NCBI GenBank assembly: GCA_951406725.2
Contig: OX597815.1
Location: 198,338,001-198,402,000 of the forward strand
DNA: 64,000 bases
Source: Octopus vulgaris
Taxonomy: Eukaryota
Reading direction: 5' to 3'
Shown here in pieces: positions 2,563 through 63,599 of this stretch. Position 1 is the stretch's first letter. Each line of letters begins with the position of its first letter. Made by a program: the position numbers and the translations under genes. Below the pieces are notes generated by a model that saw only the letters and a list, made by a program, of their open reading frames with translations, did not search any database and was not told where the DNA came from.

Positions 2563-3223
2563 AATGTGTGTGTATGTCCGTGTGCATGTTTGTGTACATG
2601 TATGTGTGCGCATACGTACAAACATTCATATATATATATATATATATATATATACGTTTAAATATTTACATCAGTGTCAGCCTCTCTCTCTCTCTCTCTC
2701 TCACTCTCTCTTTGTCAACACACACACACATACTACTTACATGGTTAACCTAAAACATCGAGTGCTTTTCTTTCGTTATTTATACCTGTGAATCTCCATT
2801 CACTTTTCCATCCACCTATTCAAGACCCTAATTTTTTCCGTTTACTTTTTTCACTATGATCTGATAGTGTTATAGGTTTCTTAGATTTCGATACAATATC
2901 AATCGATATTGTTATATCGAGATAGAGATGAAAAGCGTTCATACATCATTTCCGCAAGCATATTATGTGTTTTGCTAATCATGTAATATTATGAAAAACA
3001 CAATTATATATATATAAAGTATTTCTCAAGTGAGTGCACGTGCATCAATGGTGGTATTATCGCTATTATTCTATGATTGTTGTATTATCAAAACGTATTT
3101 GTTTGAACGATATTGTTGGTATAACGCTACTCTCTGTTGTATATCGCTTGCAAGATTCGCTTATGCTTCAATCTTTGTAATTAAATCATGTATTCTATGA
3201 ATACTAGTTGTGGCAGACAATAA

Positions 3224-3257
<34 letters not shown>

Positions 3258-3340
3258 CAACAATTGAGGGTAAAATTAATTAATTATTAATCAATTTCAC
3301 CAAGTGTTCAGTATGCAAAGGGACCATTTAAGGCGAATTC

Positions 3341-3727
3341 AAATTATTACATTATATAAAAGGGCTTAGTAAAATAAATTACTTCGCCGCATACTGAACT
3401 CATTAGAAATAGCAGCTAAAAAACTTTTTTAAAAGCTATTTCTAATACTTAAAGAGAATCTCTCTCATATATAGCGTTTGCTTAATTCAACTCACAAAAG
3501 TTTGGGGGTAAGGACATTAAAAAATCAAATGCTTAGCATTTGATTTTTTAATGTCCTTACCCCCAAACTTTTGTGAGTTGAATTAAGCAAACGCTATATA
3601 TGAGAGAGATTCTCTTTAAGTATTAGAAATAGCTTTTAAAAAAGTTTTTTAGCTGCTATTTCTAATGAGTTCAGTATGCGGCGAAGTAATTTATTTTACT
3701 AAGCCCTTTTATATAATGTAATAATTT
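3341..3727. repeat. Palindrome, 193-bp arms with 1-nt spacer, within a TA-flanked element (about 3257-3727)
   Basis: Centre aaatgct-t-agcattt at 3534. Arms match by eye out to 3341/3727. The left arm extends a further ~85 bp to the (TA)n at 3256. Confidence 0.95.
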
Positions 3728-3849
3728 TTATATATATATATATATATTCACGTGTATGTGTATGTATTTGCATGTGCATGGGTGTATGTGCACGTCCGTG
3801 TGTGTAGATAGTTCGATTGATGGACATACAGACACACATATGAAGAAAT

Positions 3850-3891
<42 letters not shown>

Positions 3892-3894
<3 letters not shown>

Positions 3895-4603
3895 TAACAA
3901 TTAAGGATAATCTCTTAATAAGGGATCTTAACAAGAAATTATCGGGTAGCTAGCGTGAAAACCTCATAAAAGAAAAGAATCCGAAAATAATTTTTTTCTT
4001 TTGAACAAATTAATTATATCTATATTGTATAGAGGGCATTATTACACATAAATGCCTCACACTAGGAGGGACAAAGTCATTACTACCAAAATTATACTAA
4101 TCATACCCAAATGCAGTTTTTCAAAGCAAGACATTTAAAAAATGAATTTAGTTCTGTATCACCGTGATTTCACATTCAACTTACGTCTAATGATCGTCAG
4201 CAGAACTGATTCTGAACACATCATAAATAAACTACCAACCTTACGTAGCGAAGACGAACAGACAACTGCTCACTCCGGCCAAGCACATGGAATGTTTATA
4301 AATCATATATCCGGTAAATGGCGGGCTTTTTACGAACTGCATGTCGGGTAATGAAAAGTATTTCGGAATAAGTTTAACAATTAAGGATAATCTCTTAATA
4401 AGGGATCTTAACAAGAAATTATCGGGTAGCTAGCGTGAAAACCTCATAAAAGAAAAGAATCCGAAAATAATTTTTTTCTTTTGAACAAATTAATTATATC
4501 TATATTGTATAGAGGGCATTATTACACATAAATGCCTCACACTAGGAGGGACAAAGTCATTACTACCAAAATTATACTAATCATACCCAAATGCAGTTTT
4601 TCA
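3892..4603 (-). mobile_element. HHR-bearing non-autonomous element, 1.48 tandem copies of a 480-bp unit, inserted in (TA)n
   Basis: 3892-4123 is identical to 4372-4603 (232 bp, period 480). The HHR lies in the intervening 248 bp, and (TA)n abuts both ends. Confidence 0.85.
4150..4207 (-). ncRNA. Type I hammerhead ribozyme (minimal, Penelope/retrozyme-like), core intact
   Basis: Minus strand reads AGUUCUG-CUGACGA-U-CAUUAGAC-GUAA-GUUGAAUG-U-GAAA-UCAC-G-GUGA-UA-CAGAACU. This gives a 7-bp stem I, canonical CUGANGA and GAAA boxes, stem II with a GNRA loop, quasi-palindromic stem III and an AUA cleavage triplet. Confidence 0.85.
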
Positions 4604-4608
4604 TATAT

Positions 4609-4639
<31 letters not shown>

Positions 4640-4647
4640 CATACATA

Positions 4648-4700
<53 letters not shown>

Positions 4701-5496
4701 GTTAGAATCTTTTGTTAATTTTATTGCGAAACGTGCTTGTAATTCTCAGACTTTTCAAGACTTAAACACATTTGTTCTCATGTTTAAAAAAATGAGGGAG
4801 CAAAAGAGAAAATATATATATATATAAAGACAAACGATGAAAGAGGTAAAAACTGTATGAGTGACATAACAGGAAGAGCATTCTAGAAAGATAGAATTTG
4901 TGACAAAAGCTCAGACGCAACACATACACACACACATAGTCACACACAGACATATTTCATGGATAAATATATGAAAAACAGTGAGACATCAGAGACAATG
5001 TGTGGTTGGCATAGGTTACTTTACATTAATCATCTATCACTTTACTAAGATATTTGGATATATGTCGAAATGAAAGTCTTTCCACTACTTTTCATTATCC
5101 ACATTTACTTAATTTGGGTCACCGTGATATTGATATTAGTTTTCGTCTTATCTTGATCTTTACACTGAAAATTATATTAATAACAATAGTAGTATAGTTT
5201 TGTTTGTATTTTTGTTGGTAGACAAAAGATATTGTCAGTGGATGGCAAAAGAAATTACGCATAGCTGGCTTCTTGTTTTACAAAGCGATTCTTGTCTACA
5301 TAATTATATTCTTGTTTAAAGTACCGTATCTACCACGAGGTTGAAAGGCTATCAGCACAATATCGTAGATAACATTTACTGTCTAGACAACTAGACAAGA
5401 AATATTATGTAAGTTGCCTACCAGGTAGCGAGCCGCTGAACGACACGTGCTATTTTCCTATTAAAAAGGTGTCGGTATATGTGTGTGAGTATAAAT

Positions 5497-5563
<67 letters not shown>

Positions 5564-8173: not shown

Positions 8174-8210
8174 TATCTGGCATTAGAAATTTTCTCCTGC
8201 CCTTATCTTG

Positions 8211-8276
<66 letters not shown>

Positions 8277-8313
8277 CAAGATAAGGGCAGAAGAAAATTT
8301 CTAATGCCAGATA
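8174..8313. repeat. (TA)n-centred palindrome with ~40-bp unique arms
   Basis: tatctggcattagaaattttctcctgcccttatcttgtaaa-(TA)n-tttacaagataagggcagaagaaaatttctaatgccagata, one mismatch. Confidence 0.95.
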
Positions 8314-8744: not shown

Positions 8745-9056
8745 AAAATTCTATAATTATAAGCATAATCATGATTAGGGTTCAGCAAAAATTGCTTCAC
8801 CACATACCAAAATTTGGAAATAGCAGTTAAATACTATTCTTATAGTAGTGGAATAATATTTAACTGCTAAACCTAATTTTCCGTATGTGGTGAAACAATT
8901 TTTCCTGAACCTTAATTATAATTATGCTTATAATTATAGAATTTTTTTATAAGGTTACCGATAATGGTTCTTTTAACATACCGAACTACTTGGTAAAATT
9001 ATTAATTATTAATTGATTAATTAATTTTACTCTTACGATGTTGCATAGTATTACAT
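8745..9056 (+). mobile_element. Diverged relative of the 3257-3727 element, with imperfect palindrome 8745-8945
   Basis: The reverse complement of 8961-9043 aligns with 3257-3330 (gtaaaattaattaat...ccaagt.gttc.gtatg...gaccatt). Arm aaaattctataattataagcataat... pairs with ...attatgcttataattatagaatttt. Confidence 0.75.
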
Positions 9057-10493: not shown

Positions 10494-11212
10494 GAGTGAG
10501 AGAGCAGTTCATGCCATCAAAGTGACACTGGGGTAAAATATACGAAGCCCAATATACCCATCATGACTACCCGTCTGATAAAGGTACACCAGGCACATGC
10601 ATCACAACCATTTTTGCGCGTCATGTTGATCTCATATCAATATAAACAGCACATGACCTTGCAGGTGGGGCCCAGTTAGAATTTTCTTATGGTCGAGTAG
10701 CCCATCCCGTTCAAAAGATCCTTGAATAAGGATTGTTTAAGGATGTTGAACGAACCACACATGTTTCCAAAGGTGAATTATCCAAACCTCTAAGAATACC
10801 TTTCAACACACGGCTATGATGCTCCCCCACTACTTCTGCTTGCGGTCAGAGATGCACATATTGTCAGCCACTAAGGGACATGCTCAACTGCTTAAGATCA
10901 AACAACTGACAAGTAAATTTGTGGTATTGAGCACATGTATCACAATATTTGCGCGACATGATGATCTCGTATCAAGATAAACAGCACTTTGCAGGTGGGG
11001 CCCTGTTAGAATTTTCTTCTGATCGAGTAACTCATCCCGCTCTAAAGGTCCCTAAATAAGGATTGTTTAAGGGTGTTGAACGAAACACCCATGTTTTCAG
11101 AGGTGAATTATTCATGCCCCAAAGAATCCCTATCAACACATGGCTAAGATACTTCCCCTCTACTTCTGCTCCTTATCACAGATGCACATATCGTCAGCCA
11201 CTAAGGGACATG
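10494..11212. mobile_element. Interspersed repeat bounded by (ATT)n, with internal ~300-bp tandem duplication
   Basis: Approximately 10600-10885 repeats at 10935-11212 (gcaggtggggccc.gttagaattttctt...cagccactaagggacatgct). The same family recurs at 38910-39240. Confidence 0.75.
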
Positions 11213-18852: not shown

Positions 18853-20745
18853 AAACTTAGATATGTTTCAACTAAAGTTTTGCCCGGGCCATGTCGAACT
18901 TAATAGCACCACCTGATAGGATTATCTAAATCCTTAAGTCACCGTTAGTGGTACCATGTTCAATTCGAGTAGGGTATTCTTGTTGGCTGAGTTGTATTCA
19001 AGCATAGATGGCTTACCATGTATTTCTACAAGAAAGGTTTCTGGATTACGTTTAAACGTAATGGGATCCATTTCTTCTCTGATCTGTTTCGGGGCAGTGT
19101 TAAATAAGGCAGAAAAAGAAATTGTGCTGCAGTGTAATCATGTGCTGCGATCCTGAATGTAAGGGTCATATGGCCCGTGTTTCTAACTTTGGATGGCTTT
19201 TGAAGCTAATGTTGAGGTCGTTTGGGCAATGCTGGTCGTATATTCTATACATTGTGCAAATGATGTATCGCTCACGGCGGTGTTGGGGAGAGTAGAGTTT
19301 AATGCTTTAAGGCGGTCCCAATAATCTAACAAAAGTCATGAACTTAATTCTTTTAGTGAATGACCTCTGGAGTGATTGAATTTTCGAGATTGTTGCTTTG
19401 TATGGGGAGATCACAGGGGGCAGTAGTATTCGAGGTGTGGCCGTATAAAGAAGGAGAAAAGTGGGATGATGACATCATGTTCTCTGAACAGGAGGGGTCT
19501 TAGCATCCAGGAGTTCATCGTAGGAGCTATAACGACCTTATTAATGATGTGAGTATTCCCAGTGAGATTATCAACAATTACTCCTAGGTCTCTGATATTA
19601 TTAGTTTTTCCAAAATTCATCAGTTCAAAATTTCCCTCATTTAGTTGCATTTTATTTTTGTCTGGCCATTAACTCACAGCATGTAGTTGAGACTAGAGTC
19701 GAGTTCGGTCTTCTTCATTGATAATTTTCTGGAGCTTAGAGTCATCAGCAAATATTTTCACTTTGCTGTGTTATATGATGCTAGAAAGGTCGATTATATA
19801 GATTATAAAGAGGAGCAGGCCCAAGTCAGTACCCTGAGGGACACCACTGGTGACTTTTTCTGGGCTTTAGTGGATTCCATCAATCACATGGTGTGTTCTG
19901 TTCACCAGGTAATACTCAATCCAGTTTAGAAGTTTTCTAAAGATTCCAATATTCGTCAATTTCAATAGTAGGATATTATAGTCAGCTCTGTCGAACGCTT
20001 TACTGAAATCAAGATATATGGCATCAGAGTCCGAAAAAGCTCCCAAGGCTTTAAGTATATCATCGATGTGGTGTAAGAGATGTGTGAGACAGTCTCTGCC
20101 GCAGCGGAACCATGCTGGCTTGAATTTAGGAGTGTGGGGCTCTCCAGGAACTTAGCCATCCTTGATATTACTGTCCTTTCAAACGCTTTAATGATATGGG
20201 GGGTTTGTGAGACTGGGCGATAGTTGACTGCGAGGGATCTGCTTCCCTGTTTGAAAACCTTGATGACAGACTGGGATATGAGCTGTTTCGGTATCTTAAT
20301 GGTGTCAACATTTGTTCAGGAGATTAGGGACAAATCTATCAGGGCCTACAGCAGAACATTGCTTGACCTCTTTAATTGCTGCTATCATGTCTGAAGCAGT
20401 GAATACTATGTCTGTGATTTTGTTGGGAATAGACTTCGTTCACATCCCTTACGTCAATATCAGTGGGATCACTAAAGACAGAGCACTATTGTTTCTGTCG
20501 TATTTCTGCAATTTTTTTGCTGTGTTGGAGAATGCCGTTATCATTGATCAATGGACCAATTGGTGAGATAGTGGCCCTATGCTTATTTGCATATGAATAG
20601 AAAACATTTGGGTTCTGATTCTTTTTATGTATTAACCCCTGTTCCGCGGCAATTCTCTGATTTTCAATGTAGATTTTCATGTAGGTCTGCAGAAGCTGTT
20701 TCCAACTCCAGCATTTTTATTGTAGTTGAATGTAGATGTTATTTG
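18853..20745 (-). mobile_element. 5'-truncated, frameshifted CR1/L2-group LINE (reverse transcriptase pseudogene plus 3' end)
   Basis: Minus-strand motifs NYRPVSQTPHIIKAFER, IYLDFSKAFDRAD, SGVPQGTDLG, KIFADDSKL, RDLGVIVDN and FIRPHLEYYCPL. The 3' UTR is homologous to 56626-56720. Confidence 0.93.
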
Positions 20746-24132: not shown

Positions 24133-24240
24133 AAATAAACTTAAAGATTATAAAATTATAGAACAAATTAAAAATTTACACACTATATAGTGTGTAAATT
24201 TTTAATTTGTTCTATAATTTTATAATCTTTAAATTTATTT
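24133..24240. repeat. Spacerless palindrome, 54-bp arms, centred on ctatatag
   Basis: aaataaacttaaagattataaaattatagaacaaattaaaaatttacacactat|atagtgtgtaaatttttaatttgttctataattttataatctttaaatttattt, one mismatch. Confidence 0.95.
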
Positions 24241-24592: not shown

Positions 24593-24596
<4 letters not shown>

Positions 24597-24671
24597 CTCA
24601 CTTTTATGTTTATCTTCTTTAATATGAATTATAAATTCATATTAAAGAAGATAAACATAAAAGTGAGATTT
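24593..24671. repeat. Perfect palindrome, 38-bp arms with ATA loop
   Basis: aaatctcacttttatgtttatcttctttaatatgaatt-ata-aattcatattaaagaagataaacataaaagtgagattt. Confidence 0.95.
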
Positions 24672-42851: not shown

Positions 42852-43120
42852 CGCCATGCTAGATCGTTAGCCACTACACACATTTTTCTTTCCTTGTTTT
42901 CTGTGTCCCTTTCTGTAGAAGAGCGTAGGCTCGAAACGTAAAAGACTTTTTTCTATTCTTGAGCGTTATACTAATACATGTTTGTTTTGTACACCACCTG
43001 TCCTCGTCTTTTGTTTTTTTCCGTAAACTCTCCCTATATATATAGGGAGAGTTTACGGAAAAAAACAAAAGACGAGGAACGGTGGTGTACAAAACAAACA
43101 TGTATTAGTATAACGCTCAA

Positions 43121-43125
<5 letters not shown>
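42852..43125 (+). mobile_element. TA-flanked HHR element with TA-centred fold-back (palindrome 42954-43125)
   Basis: tattcttgagcgttatac...aaactctccc-tatatatata-gggagagttt...gtataacgctcaagaata, two substitutions. Another copy lies at 51724-51895. Confidence 0.88.
42909..42944 (+). ncRNA. Minimal hammerhead-like fold (CUGUAGAA core variant, loopless ACGU stem III)
   Basis: CUUU-CUGUAGA-A-GAGC-GUAG-GCUC-GAAA-CG-UA-AAAG. Confidence 0.65.
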
Positions 43126-47853: not shown

Positions 47854-47897
47854 ACACAACGTTTCAGCTGATATACTCTCCAGTCGTCATCAGGTGT
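47854..47897 (-). ncRNA. Minimal type I hammerhead fold
   Basis: ACAC-CUGAUGA-C-GACUG-GAGAGUAUAU-CAGCU-GAAA-CG-UU-GUGU. A more decayed copy lies on the plus strand at 48293-48336. Confidence 0.75.
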
Positions 47898-56625: not shown

Positions 56626-57212
56626 AAACTTAGATAAACTTAGATGTTTCGACCAAATATTGGTCCAGGCCATGTCTAAACTTAATAGCACCACCTGATA
56701 GGATTATTCGAATCCTGTTTAAGTCAAGTTTTGTTTAAGTCAAGTTTTGTTCAAGTAGTGAGTTCTTGTTGGGTGATTTGTATCCAGTTTTGTTCAAGTA
56801 GTGAGTTCTTGTTGGGTGAGTTGTATCCAATTATGGGTGGCTTATCTGGTATTCTTTGAAGGAATCTATCCAGACTCTGTTTAAAGTTGATGGGATCCTT
56901 TTCCTCTTTGATCTCCCTCGGGACAATGTTAAATAGGGCAGGGCCTGTTGAGGAAAAGAAATTATGTTGCAGTGTACATGTATGTTGTGATCTTGAATTG
57001 GGCACGGGACGTATAGCCCGTGGTCCAAGTCTTGGATGAACCTTGAAGCTAATGTTTAGGTCGTTTGGGCAAAGTTGGCGGTATATTTTCCACATCGTAC
57101 AAATGATGTACCGCTCACGGCGACGCTGGAGGGAGTAAAGTTTCAAGGCTTTAAGGCGATCCCAATAATCGAGAGCAGCCATGCCTTCAATTTGTTTAGT
57201 GAGAGCCCTCTG
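56626..57212 (-). mobile_element. 3' fragment of the same CR1/L2-group LINE (ORF2 C-terminus, 3' UTR, tandem tail)
   Basis: ORF 56751-57182 reads DYWDRLKALKLYSLQRRRERY...GPALFN...FKQSLDRFLQRIPDKP. Tail aaacttagat x2; UTR matches 18853-18930. Confidence 0.92.
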
Positions 57213-58061
57213 ATAGGAATTAATATGTTTTTAAAATATTGGGAATTCACAGAAGTTGAACATAATTGACGCACTAGAGAGAAAGAACTAATACAGACAG
57301 TTTATTCGTCCCCCTGCAATGCGTAAACAAATGCAAAATCCATTGCTGCAGAAGACGATATAATCAGGTCACGGAAACAGTTGTGTAATATGAGCGTAGC
57401 ACGATTCTCTTGCATGCGTTATTACACGTAGATAACGAGATGGAGAGTAATGCACACTAATTGATGTAGTGTTTTAAAGGACTATTACAGCAAGAGAAAA
57501 AGTCTACAGATATTAATATAAGTAATATAATTAATGAAAATGAGTATCTCACATACTTATTGCCGTAGGCATTTTATCACTTCTTAAAGAATTATCGGTA
57601 TAATCATATCAAGCGCGCGAATTGATAAAATCGTTAGCGGATCGGGTAAAAAATGCGTAGCAGTATTTGTTCCGGCTCTATTTGCTCTGAATTAAAATGC
57701 AGCCGGACTTTACTTTTCCTTTCATCTCTTCAGGATCGTTACCTTGAACACCGCAACGGACCGGCGACTTGTTTAGGGTTTATGGTAAAATTTCGGTCAT
57801 CTATACCTATATGAAACGGTTAATCTTAGGCTGAAATGTGTTTTGTTTTTCTAATGTAATCGGATTAATTTGTAAGGAATGATAACTGAATGAGTATATA
57901 AGATGTTAGCGTACATATATACGATGTGACAAAAATGTCCGGGTTTGACTTTATTATAAAATGCTGAAGATCGAAATCTAATACAATAATTACCGAAATT
58001 GACTGAATAGCCAAGAAAAAGTGCTCGTTCAACTCGAATTATAAAGATTATTTTAATAGTT

Positions 58062-63198: not shown

Positions 63199-63599
63199 AT
63201 AAATATTAGGGAATAAATCCAAATTTACAGGGAAAAAATCAGATTTAGGATTAAATCCAATTTTATAGTAAAATATTATAAAATATTATTAGAGACAAAA
63301 CCACTATTTTGCAAAACAAACAAGGAAAGACTTAATCAATACATAAAATTTTAATAAATAGTCAAAAAACCGCCACTACAATTGTTTCTTGTCTTGATCG
63401 ACAATCTTCAGTGGATTCAATAAGTCAGTTTCAAATTATGAAACTGACTTATTGGAAGTCCACCTGAAGATTGTCGATCAAGACAAGAAACAATTGTAGT
63501 GGCGGTATTTTTGACTATTTATTAAAATTTTATGTATTGATTAAGTCTTTCCTTGTTTGTTTTGCAAAATAGTGGTTTTGTCTCTAATAATATTTTATA
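63199..63599. mobile_element. TA-flanked element with fold-back palindrome 63277-63599 carrying two divergent HHRs
   Basis: Centre gtcagtttca-aatta-tgaaactgac; ~160-bp arms with a few indels. The left arm extends to the (TA)n at 63198. Confidence 0.92.
63460..63502 (+). ncRNA. Canonical-core minimal type I hammerhead ribozyme
   Basis: CCAC-CUGAAGA-UUGUC-GAUCAA-GACAA-GAAA-CAAUUG-UA-GUGG: perfect stems I and II, palindromic ACAAUUGU stem III, GUA triplet. The mirror copy on the minus strand at 63373-63414 lacks one C of stem I. Confidence 0.9.

Follow-up and report, generated by a model that had tools for sequence, protein, structure and literature searches.

What leaves one and a half turns of a short noncoding unit, with a ribozyme motif in its middle, inside a (TA)n microsatellite of Octopus vulgaris? 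This is the layout found near the start of the window, by which we mean the whole 64,000-nt stretch analyzed here. The best reading of the locus is a non-LTR retrozyme, non-autonomous and recently inserted, that was copied from an RNA circle by a Penelope-type enzyme, and we give this complete reading a probability of roughly 0.55. Its parts differ in strength. Membership in a retrozyme family is highly probable, insertion by reverse transcription (RT) with internal priming is probable, and a circle, rather than an uncut multimer, is somewhat favored as the template.

Self-comparison of the window recovered the two 232-bp direct repeats at a period of 480 nt exactly as the first-pass annotation had described them, with 100% identity, and the (TA)n tracts reported on both sides are also in place (Table 1). 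The insert is 712 bp long, which corresponds to 1.483 units (712/480), and its RNA sense is assigned to the minus strand because the hammerhead lies on that strand and the predicted folds are asymmetric in its favor. Any target duplication is concealed inside the (TA)n tract, and the right end at 4603 is read as a one-off truncation. No further copy of the unit appeared in the self-comparison of the 64 kb, which are AT-rich, microsatellite-dense animal DNA containing LINE fragments. The unit, with a GC content of 34%, lacks coding capacity, as had been claimed. Each of the six frames of the 480-nt circle has 9 to 16 stops per turn, the longest stop-free run is 70 codons, Pfam returned nothing for its two ORFs, and an ORF for a reverse transcriptase plus GIY-YIG is absent from it. 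An endless ORF around the circle, whose length is divisible by 3, is ruled out by the stops in every frame. A tRNA-derived head was not found either, with 0 tRNA genes predicted in 3000-5500.

Table 1. Coordinates of the insertion, its parts, and its flanks (positions in the window)
Feature	Position	Strand	Basis or remark
(TA)17 target tract, left	3858..3891	.	Tandem repeat scan
Whole insertion, 1.48 turns of a 480-nt noncoding unit	3892..4603	- (RNA sense)	Repeats, hammerhead, fold asymmetry
232-bp repeat, 3' copy in RNA sense; left end is the putative RT start	3892..4123	-	(TA)n joins recur at the equivalent 4368-4373
TA-like stretch inside the unit, commonest family junction with (TA)n	4015..4025	+	41 X2 contigs (agreement 0.72), 2 in X14
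248-bp single-copy segment with the ribozyme; PBS/PPT absent from its ends	4124..4371	-	Self-comparison, sequence inspection
Type I hammerhead	4150..4207	-	Stem I 4207-4201/4156-4150, core CUGACGA 4200-4194
Hammerhead stem II	4192-4189/4176-4173	-	GNRA-capped hairpin 4187-4178, GAAA 4171-4168; U.U at 10.1-11.1
Hammerhead stem III, palindromic	4168-4158	-	Cleavage triplet AUA 4159-4157
Predicted self-cleavage/re-ligation site after AUA, between 4157 and 4156	4156..4157	-	NUH rule
Template bases at the first start site	4368..4372	+	ATA matches a nicked (TA)n primer over 3 nt; presumed priming
Right-hand 232-bp repeat, 5' in RNA sense; partial second turn resembling a pseudo-LTR	4372..4603	-	Self-comparison
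Imperfect (TA)n target tract, right	4604..4699	.	Tandem repeat scan (tract called from 4603)

The single minus-strand hammerhead noted earlier between the repeats has a full core, and its description as intact needs one caveat, a U.U at positions 10.1-11.1. Stem I has 7 bp, stem III has 4 bp on a perfect palindrome, and stem II has the U.U at its base, followed by 4 bp, and runs on through an internal mismatch into a 3-bp hairpin capped by GUAA. By the standard NUH rule for hammerheads, the cut previously placed near 4157 is predicted directly after the AUA triplet. A purpose-written descriptor did not recover the motif from any of 5000 shuffled units, and its strict setting gave no match in 200 shuffled versions of the full window. 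Rfam detected neither a hammerhead nor another ribozyme in the element (10 weak, unrelated rows), and the best 150 of the 296 rows from the whole-window scan contained only microsatellite-driven miRNA matches. The U10.1-U11.1 pair is described as a natural hammerhead variant and the best-tolerated mispair (PMC3088659), and the axolotl ribozyme HHR_Amex2, with the same U.U, is reported to cleave weakly as a monomer (22% in 1 h) and well as a dimer (PMC7229834). The hammerhead fold lies 1.2 kcal/mol above the minimum, whether computed on the circle or on the 712-nt transcript, and the active stem III has a probability of about 0.06 in the fold ensemble.

The family is widespread in public sequencing runs. 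With a share of at least one half of the unit's words as the threshold, 18 of the 24 runs listed contain the unit, at shares of 0.79 to 1.00; these runs come from 8 studies and 5 organism labels. Of the 18, 7 were guessed to be RNA, while in 4 further runs guessed to be RNA the words were entirely absent. Contigs of four runs (X1, X2, X4, and X14) were compared on the repeat-free rotation 4000-4479. None of the four is recorded as RNA; X4 and X14 are guessed to be RNA and X1 to be DNA. X1 may be the source of the window, although with five contigs of low depth it has more the look of RNA or of thin coverage. X1 and X4, which carry different organism labels, each yielded one closed contig of 510 nt (480 plus a 30-nt overlap) that matches the window without a single difference. 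Such a cycle is not proof of covalent closure, because any tandem or terminally redundant transcript gives a de Bruijn cycle. In X14 the unit is covered piecewise: one piece of 261 nt is perfect, another of 195 nt has 4 changes and 1 gap, and the rest are shorter. The deep run X2 contributed 2583 contigs, distributed as 834, 929, 651, and 169 over four identity bands; the family is therefore large and varied, with depth giving no copy number. At position 4176, 26,620 of the 26,887 units of X2 depth show the other letter, leaving the window's letter at about 1%, whereas X4, under the same label as X2, shows the window's letter exclusively; different populations could explain this contrast.

A 511-nt contig of X1 that resembles the unit only at 4110-4141 and 4407-4476 is read as a 481-nt sister cycle, with its closure presumed, and in a sister variant from X4 the shared blocks lie 104 letters apart, so that at least two sister families are seen across X1, X4, and X14. 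One loose end of X2, 30 letters read by eye, hints at a hammerhead whose position 11.1 is C and whose stem II is longer, nearer to PLE motifs. Two metatranscriptome runs with unit shares of 0.17 and 0.06 were not counted as evidence. The hammerhead pattern matched 0 metagenome contigs and 0 viral contigs, a comparison with phage records gave no match, and the four metagenome loci hit by a 20-nt pattern were discarded as chance, each matching over 20-23 nt only.

The variants also bear on the ribozyme. The X2-dominant allele changes 4149, 4150, 4176, and 4183, in phase also in X14 as read by eye; stem I passes from 7 to 6 pairs, stem II is one pair shorter, and GUAA becomes GCAA, still a GNRA loop. 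This allele retains the stem I/II offset at 6 and 4 positions, which are called canonical (PMC4209133). In addition, the loose ends of two sister sequences, a small sample read by eye, retain the stem III palindrome with a different center letter. The allele changes and the retained palindrome point to selection on the ribozyme, as far as these small samples indicate. The summed depth of X2 dips over the ribozyme, which may mean fewer variants there; the dip is uninterpretable and was given no weight.

The ends of the copies indicate where synthesis would have started. Left joins with (TA)n fall at 4368 in 12 contigs of X2 and at 4373 in 1 contig of X1, next to the 4372 site used in the window, and the best TA match on the unit (7/8, at 4022-4025) lies within the other junction stretch, 4015-4025. 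A single fixed 3' end had been predicted; instead, two recurring and slightly ragged ends were found, 123 nt apart on the unit, neither of them at the ribozyme cut and both on the side where RT of a minus-strand RNA would begin. The joins at 4015 could include later insertions or slippage at the TA-like stretch. No right-side (TA)n join and no recurring right end at 4123 was present among the 20 of 81 loose-end rows listed. A linear monomer cut by the ribozyme limits the cDNA to 265 or 142 nt, depending on the start. Since the copy here measures 712 nt, beyond the 265-nt maximum, the template crossed the cut site, and such a template is a circle, an uncut multimer, or the product of a jump. 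The earlier interpretation of a very young copy, made through a hammerhead-processed circle or a PLE-type tandem, holds as regards a young, retrozyme-like and PLE-like copy of a 480-nt hammerhead unit and a template that crossed the cut site.

Folded as a circle, the minus strand of the unit reaches -124.3 kcal/mol with 68% of its bases paired and a z score of -5.85, a value equaled in 0 of 100 shuffles, against -3.27 for the plus-strand circle. Stem I closes the monomer ends with a mean pair probability of 0.89, and a long helix joining the repeat to the interior accounts for 34 of the 163 pairs. DNA foldbacks can also reach high z scores, however: the neighboring decayed foldback at 1626-2335, one of six control stretches, folds better still (z -10.65). 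Sequence variants did not favor the fold, with 7 of 19 breaking a predicted pair where 7.9 were expected (P 0.41), and linear permutations ranged from -122 to -131 kcal/mol, without the cut site standing out. The 480-nt RNA probably forms circles.

Under the preferred reading, a locus with at least two tandem 480-nt units would be transcribed from the minus strand, and type I hammerheads, whose motif is seen in the unit, would excise 480-nt monomers. Stem I would hold the monomer ends together while a host RtcB-type ligase closes a compact circle, the covalent closure being suggested by analogy with coral, mussel, and axolotl retrozymes. A putative Penelope-like reverse transcriptase/GIY-YIG protein acting in trans would then nick (TA)n and prime inside the RNA, at about 4372 or at 4015-4025, aided by short TA matches. 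On such an endless template, synthesis would pass the ligated cut site and, in this case, stop at 712 nt, giving a repeat-unique-repeat partial tandem with one ribozyme. With its single ribozyme, the insertion cannot make a new circle by itself. Cervera and de la Pena put forward RT of a ligated circle over more than one unit length in 2014 and again in 2020 (PMC7229834), and a review proposes it too (PMC7761336); the mechanism is already in print and not new. In the window, no PLE reverse transcriptase was found among 120 of the 165 filtered ORFs, which gave one weak RVT_1 match, and the unit is without similarity to three PLE-like inserts (z 0.47, 1.81, and -0.6). PLE-type minimal hammerheads do occur at other sites in the window.

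The same family and a PLE enzyme could have produced the copy from an uncut tandem transcript, or by a jump of the reverse transcriptase to a second RNA; the unit may then be a deleted PLE pseudo-LTR, and circles may exist without being the intermediate. We regard this route as unlikely, although several lines of evidence suit it. Hammerhead mutants of an anole PLE insert normally, with uncut RNA dominating (PMC11167929), partial tandems are described as the norm for PLEs and for the non-autonomous MRC1 (PMC8557442), the stem II U.U is accompanied in the axolotl by the weak monomer cleavage mentioned above, and the 510-nt cycles do not separate a circle from a tandem. A processed circle, on the other hand, fits the strand-biased compact fold with stem I closing the monomer ends and the single-sequence, unbranched cycle in X1 and X4, and tested animal retrozymes accumulate largely as circles (PMC7229834). 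The circular template advanced in the first-pass annotation gains from the cycle that closes in two runs and from the compact minus-strand fold, but an uncut tandem fits almost as well. An effect of assembly or of local events on the number of units is improbable: an array of at least 2.48 units would have been collapsed, in which case the locus is possibly the source of the RNA, or a shorter insertion would have been duplicated in place. The perfect identity of the repeats, the identity of the X1/X4 cycle to the locus, and the failure to find the exact right junction among the 20 of 81 loose-end rows listed are compatible with such an effect. Yet contigs assembled from raw reads show the same type of left junction again and are continuous across both internal junctions, the tandem register equals the 480 period of the family, which a chance local duplication would not produce, and a collapse alters the count and not the nature of the element.

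Readings that change the kind of element have lower probabilities. A self-propagating viroid-like RNA, copied RNA-to-RNA or moving between hosts and leaving genomic copies as RT leftovers, is very improbable, and hardly better are the chances of a combined version in which a viroid-like 480-nt circle, kept up at the RNA level and letter-identical across host species, is repeatedly stamped into (TA)n by PLE enzymes, the present insertion being one such stamp. Its single expressed haplotype would account for about 1% of the genomic depth at the diagnostic site, and the agent, were it real, would correspond in animals to a retroviroid. The letter-identical cycle under two organism labels, the restriction of RNA-guessed X4 to the window allele where X2 of the same label differs at 4176, and the 79-100% of words common to five labels agree with an RNA-level agent. 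These labels may, however, be one species complex or different populations, and a few active DNA loci account for the same data; a replicating RNA should appear as a mutant swarm and one sequence was seen, the plus strand of the unit is without a hammerhead core and Rfam gave no other ribozyme class, and viral and metagenome contigs were without match. More doubtful still is a TRIM-like mini LTR element that has 233-bp LTRs around an interior of 248 bp, carries the hammerhead as cargo, and was placed in (TA)n by an integrase. Such dimensions are compatible with TRIM sizes, and the (TA)n tract would hide any target duplication. Contrary to what had been stated at first, the outer ends on the plus strand do read TG (3891-3892) and CA (4602-4603), the T belonging to the TA tract; they are uninformative because such edges are common at the TA tracts of the window, 41 of 130 being followed by T and G in this way and 50 of 130 preceded by C and A. 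The right repeat begins with AG, and neither PBS nor PPT, which the first-pass annotation had named as marks of a TRIM, was seen by eye in either orientation. Furthermore, the left ends are ragged (4368, 4372, and 4373) with the second site at 4015 more frequent, the recurring right end that LTRs would give at 4123 was not seen in the listed rows, and the long helix pairs repeat with interior. The lowest probability goes to spread at the DNA level, in which a satellite piece is re-integrated as extrachromosomal circular DNA or by rolling-circle without an RNA step. Tandem units can yield DNA circles, and ends with short TA matches suit repair-type joins, but the conserved ribozyme, the one-sided recurring ends, and the strand-biased fold are left unexplained.

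Metazoan non-LTR retrozymes, as described in PMC7229834 and in the 2026 preprint by Li, Clavereau, and Pollet (10.64898/2026.07.22.740005), share with the present element noncoding units, a few hundred bases long and arranged head to tail, each with one type I hammerhead, a GC content below 50%, the lack of PBS/PPT, a compact predicted circle, and dispersed monomer-scale copies, and the U.U at the base of helix II is that of axolotl HHR_Amex2 (PMC7229834). The unit of 480/481 nt is longer than the 170-400 nt given by Cervera and de la Pena in 2020 (PMC7229834) and lies within the 51-972 bp of the preprint (10.64898/2026.07.22.740005). (TA)n targeting with mapped start sites, seen here, is not described for metazoan non-LTR retrozymes in the accessible portions of the same two sources. 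By the preprint's rule, which asks for two ribozymes in an active locus, this one would not count as active because it has one; the preprint also argues that such elements derive from PLEs and reports cleavage in one of nine elements tested, with 8 of 9 predicted Xenopus retrozymes uncleaved (10.64898/2026.07.22.740005).

PLEs such as Poseidon of Anolis and Naiad (PMC11167929, PMC8557442, PMC4209133) likewise form a pseudo-LTR by partial tandem, carry type I hammerheads with a palindromic helix III, and enter AT-rich or (TA)n targets, and anole Poseidon also has two internal RT starts (PMC11167929). Unlike PLEs, the element has no ORF, and its starts are 123 nt apart against a tail of 30-40 nt; it also shows short matches to its target, whereas the anole enzyme initiates without any homology, nicks AT-rich DNA, and takes uncut RNA as its main substrate (PMC11167929). 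Naiad PLEs prefer (TA)n, occur in Octopus, and lack canonical hammerheads (PMC8557442). No sequence link between the unit and any PLE was found. MRC1, a non-autonomous Chlamys PLE of Chlamydomonas, is similar by description in being non-autonomous, with a pseudo-LTR and head-to-tail units, and its layout was once mistaken for an LTR element; its host is a green alga, and Chlamys elements are mostly reported without canonical hammerheads (PMC8557442). Plant LTR retrozymes and TRIMs (PMC7761336) have the same repeat-interior-repeat look and a hammerhead, with a circle intermediate that is theirs and is proposed here. As that review describes them, plant LTR retrozymes bear type III ribozymes in both LTRs, a PBS, a PPT, and 4-bp duplications (PMC7761336), in contrast to the one type I ribozyme in the interior of the octopus element and its absence of PBS/PPT. 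The element shows the testable features of metazoan non-LTR retrozymes and lacks those of TRIMs and LTR retrozymes.

The best reading is a new family of animal non-LTR retrozymes, an element of a known kind. A report of cephalopod retrozymes was not found in the literature searched, which left most subscription papers outside, and the main text of an O. vulgaris repeat annotation counts 31 recently active PLE families and uses the word "ribozyme" 0 times (PMC13282606). Repbase or Dfam may already list these sequences as an unknown repeat. For the mobility of animal retrozymes, a PLE enzyme copying the circle more than once has been proposed, with the mechanism given as unresolved (PMC7229834, PMC7761336, 10.64898/2026.07.22.740005). 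Such an insertion can be tested on this family: its young copy matches an assembled 480-nt cycle letter for letter, the microsatellite target keeps the junctions legible, and the two recurring starts lie apart from the ribozyme cut. Its copy ends are a rare view of the pasting into DNA, while the catalogue of element kinds is unchanged.

Several neighboring elements in the window deserve mention. At 3256-3727, 130 bp from the retrozyme insertion and between TA tracts, lies a perfect 193-bp palindrome (3341-3533 / 3535-3727, with a 1-nt spacer) with an 85-bp extension of the left arm, which matches 8963-9033 at 76%; the structure looks like a very young inverted PLE-type end. The TA-flanked insert at 1626-2335 measures 710 bp and is read as an old inverted pseudo-LTR pair. 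A long foldback takes up its first 443 bp (z -10.65 and -6.76), and both arms contain the decayed remains of a hammerhead-like core, oriented oppositely (2010 on the plus strand, about 1690 on the minus strand). A viroid-like rod at 1626-2068 was rejected, the arms being identical at 131 of 186 columns and G.U pairs showing no strand bias (10 vs 13). Long palindromes at 24141-24232, 24593-24671, 42955-43124, and 8176-8311, several of them at or beside TA tracts, account for the false Rfam miRNA matches. A 67-aa frame at 10777-10977 (+) has a weak FIIND match (E 0.0025, below the cut-off) and is possibly an exon or chance. LINE-like coding fragments lie at 56754-57230 (-), with 67 homologues, and at 19870-20315 (-), with a weak RVT_1 match (E 0.007). 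The minus strand at 47893 carries, as read by eye, a degenerate PLE-type minimal hammerhead with a full CUGAUGA core, a loopless helix III, a 4-bp stem I, and a damaged stem II. Finally, an inverted pair of near-identical segments occupies 63330-63545; the copy at 63464 (+) is a minimal hammerhead with stems of 4/5/3 and a palindromic helix III, and its twin at 63411 (-) is one base short before the core.
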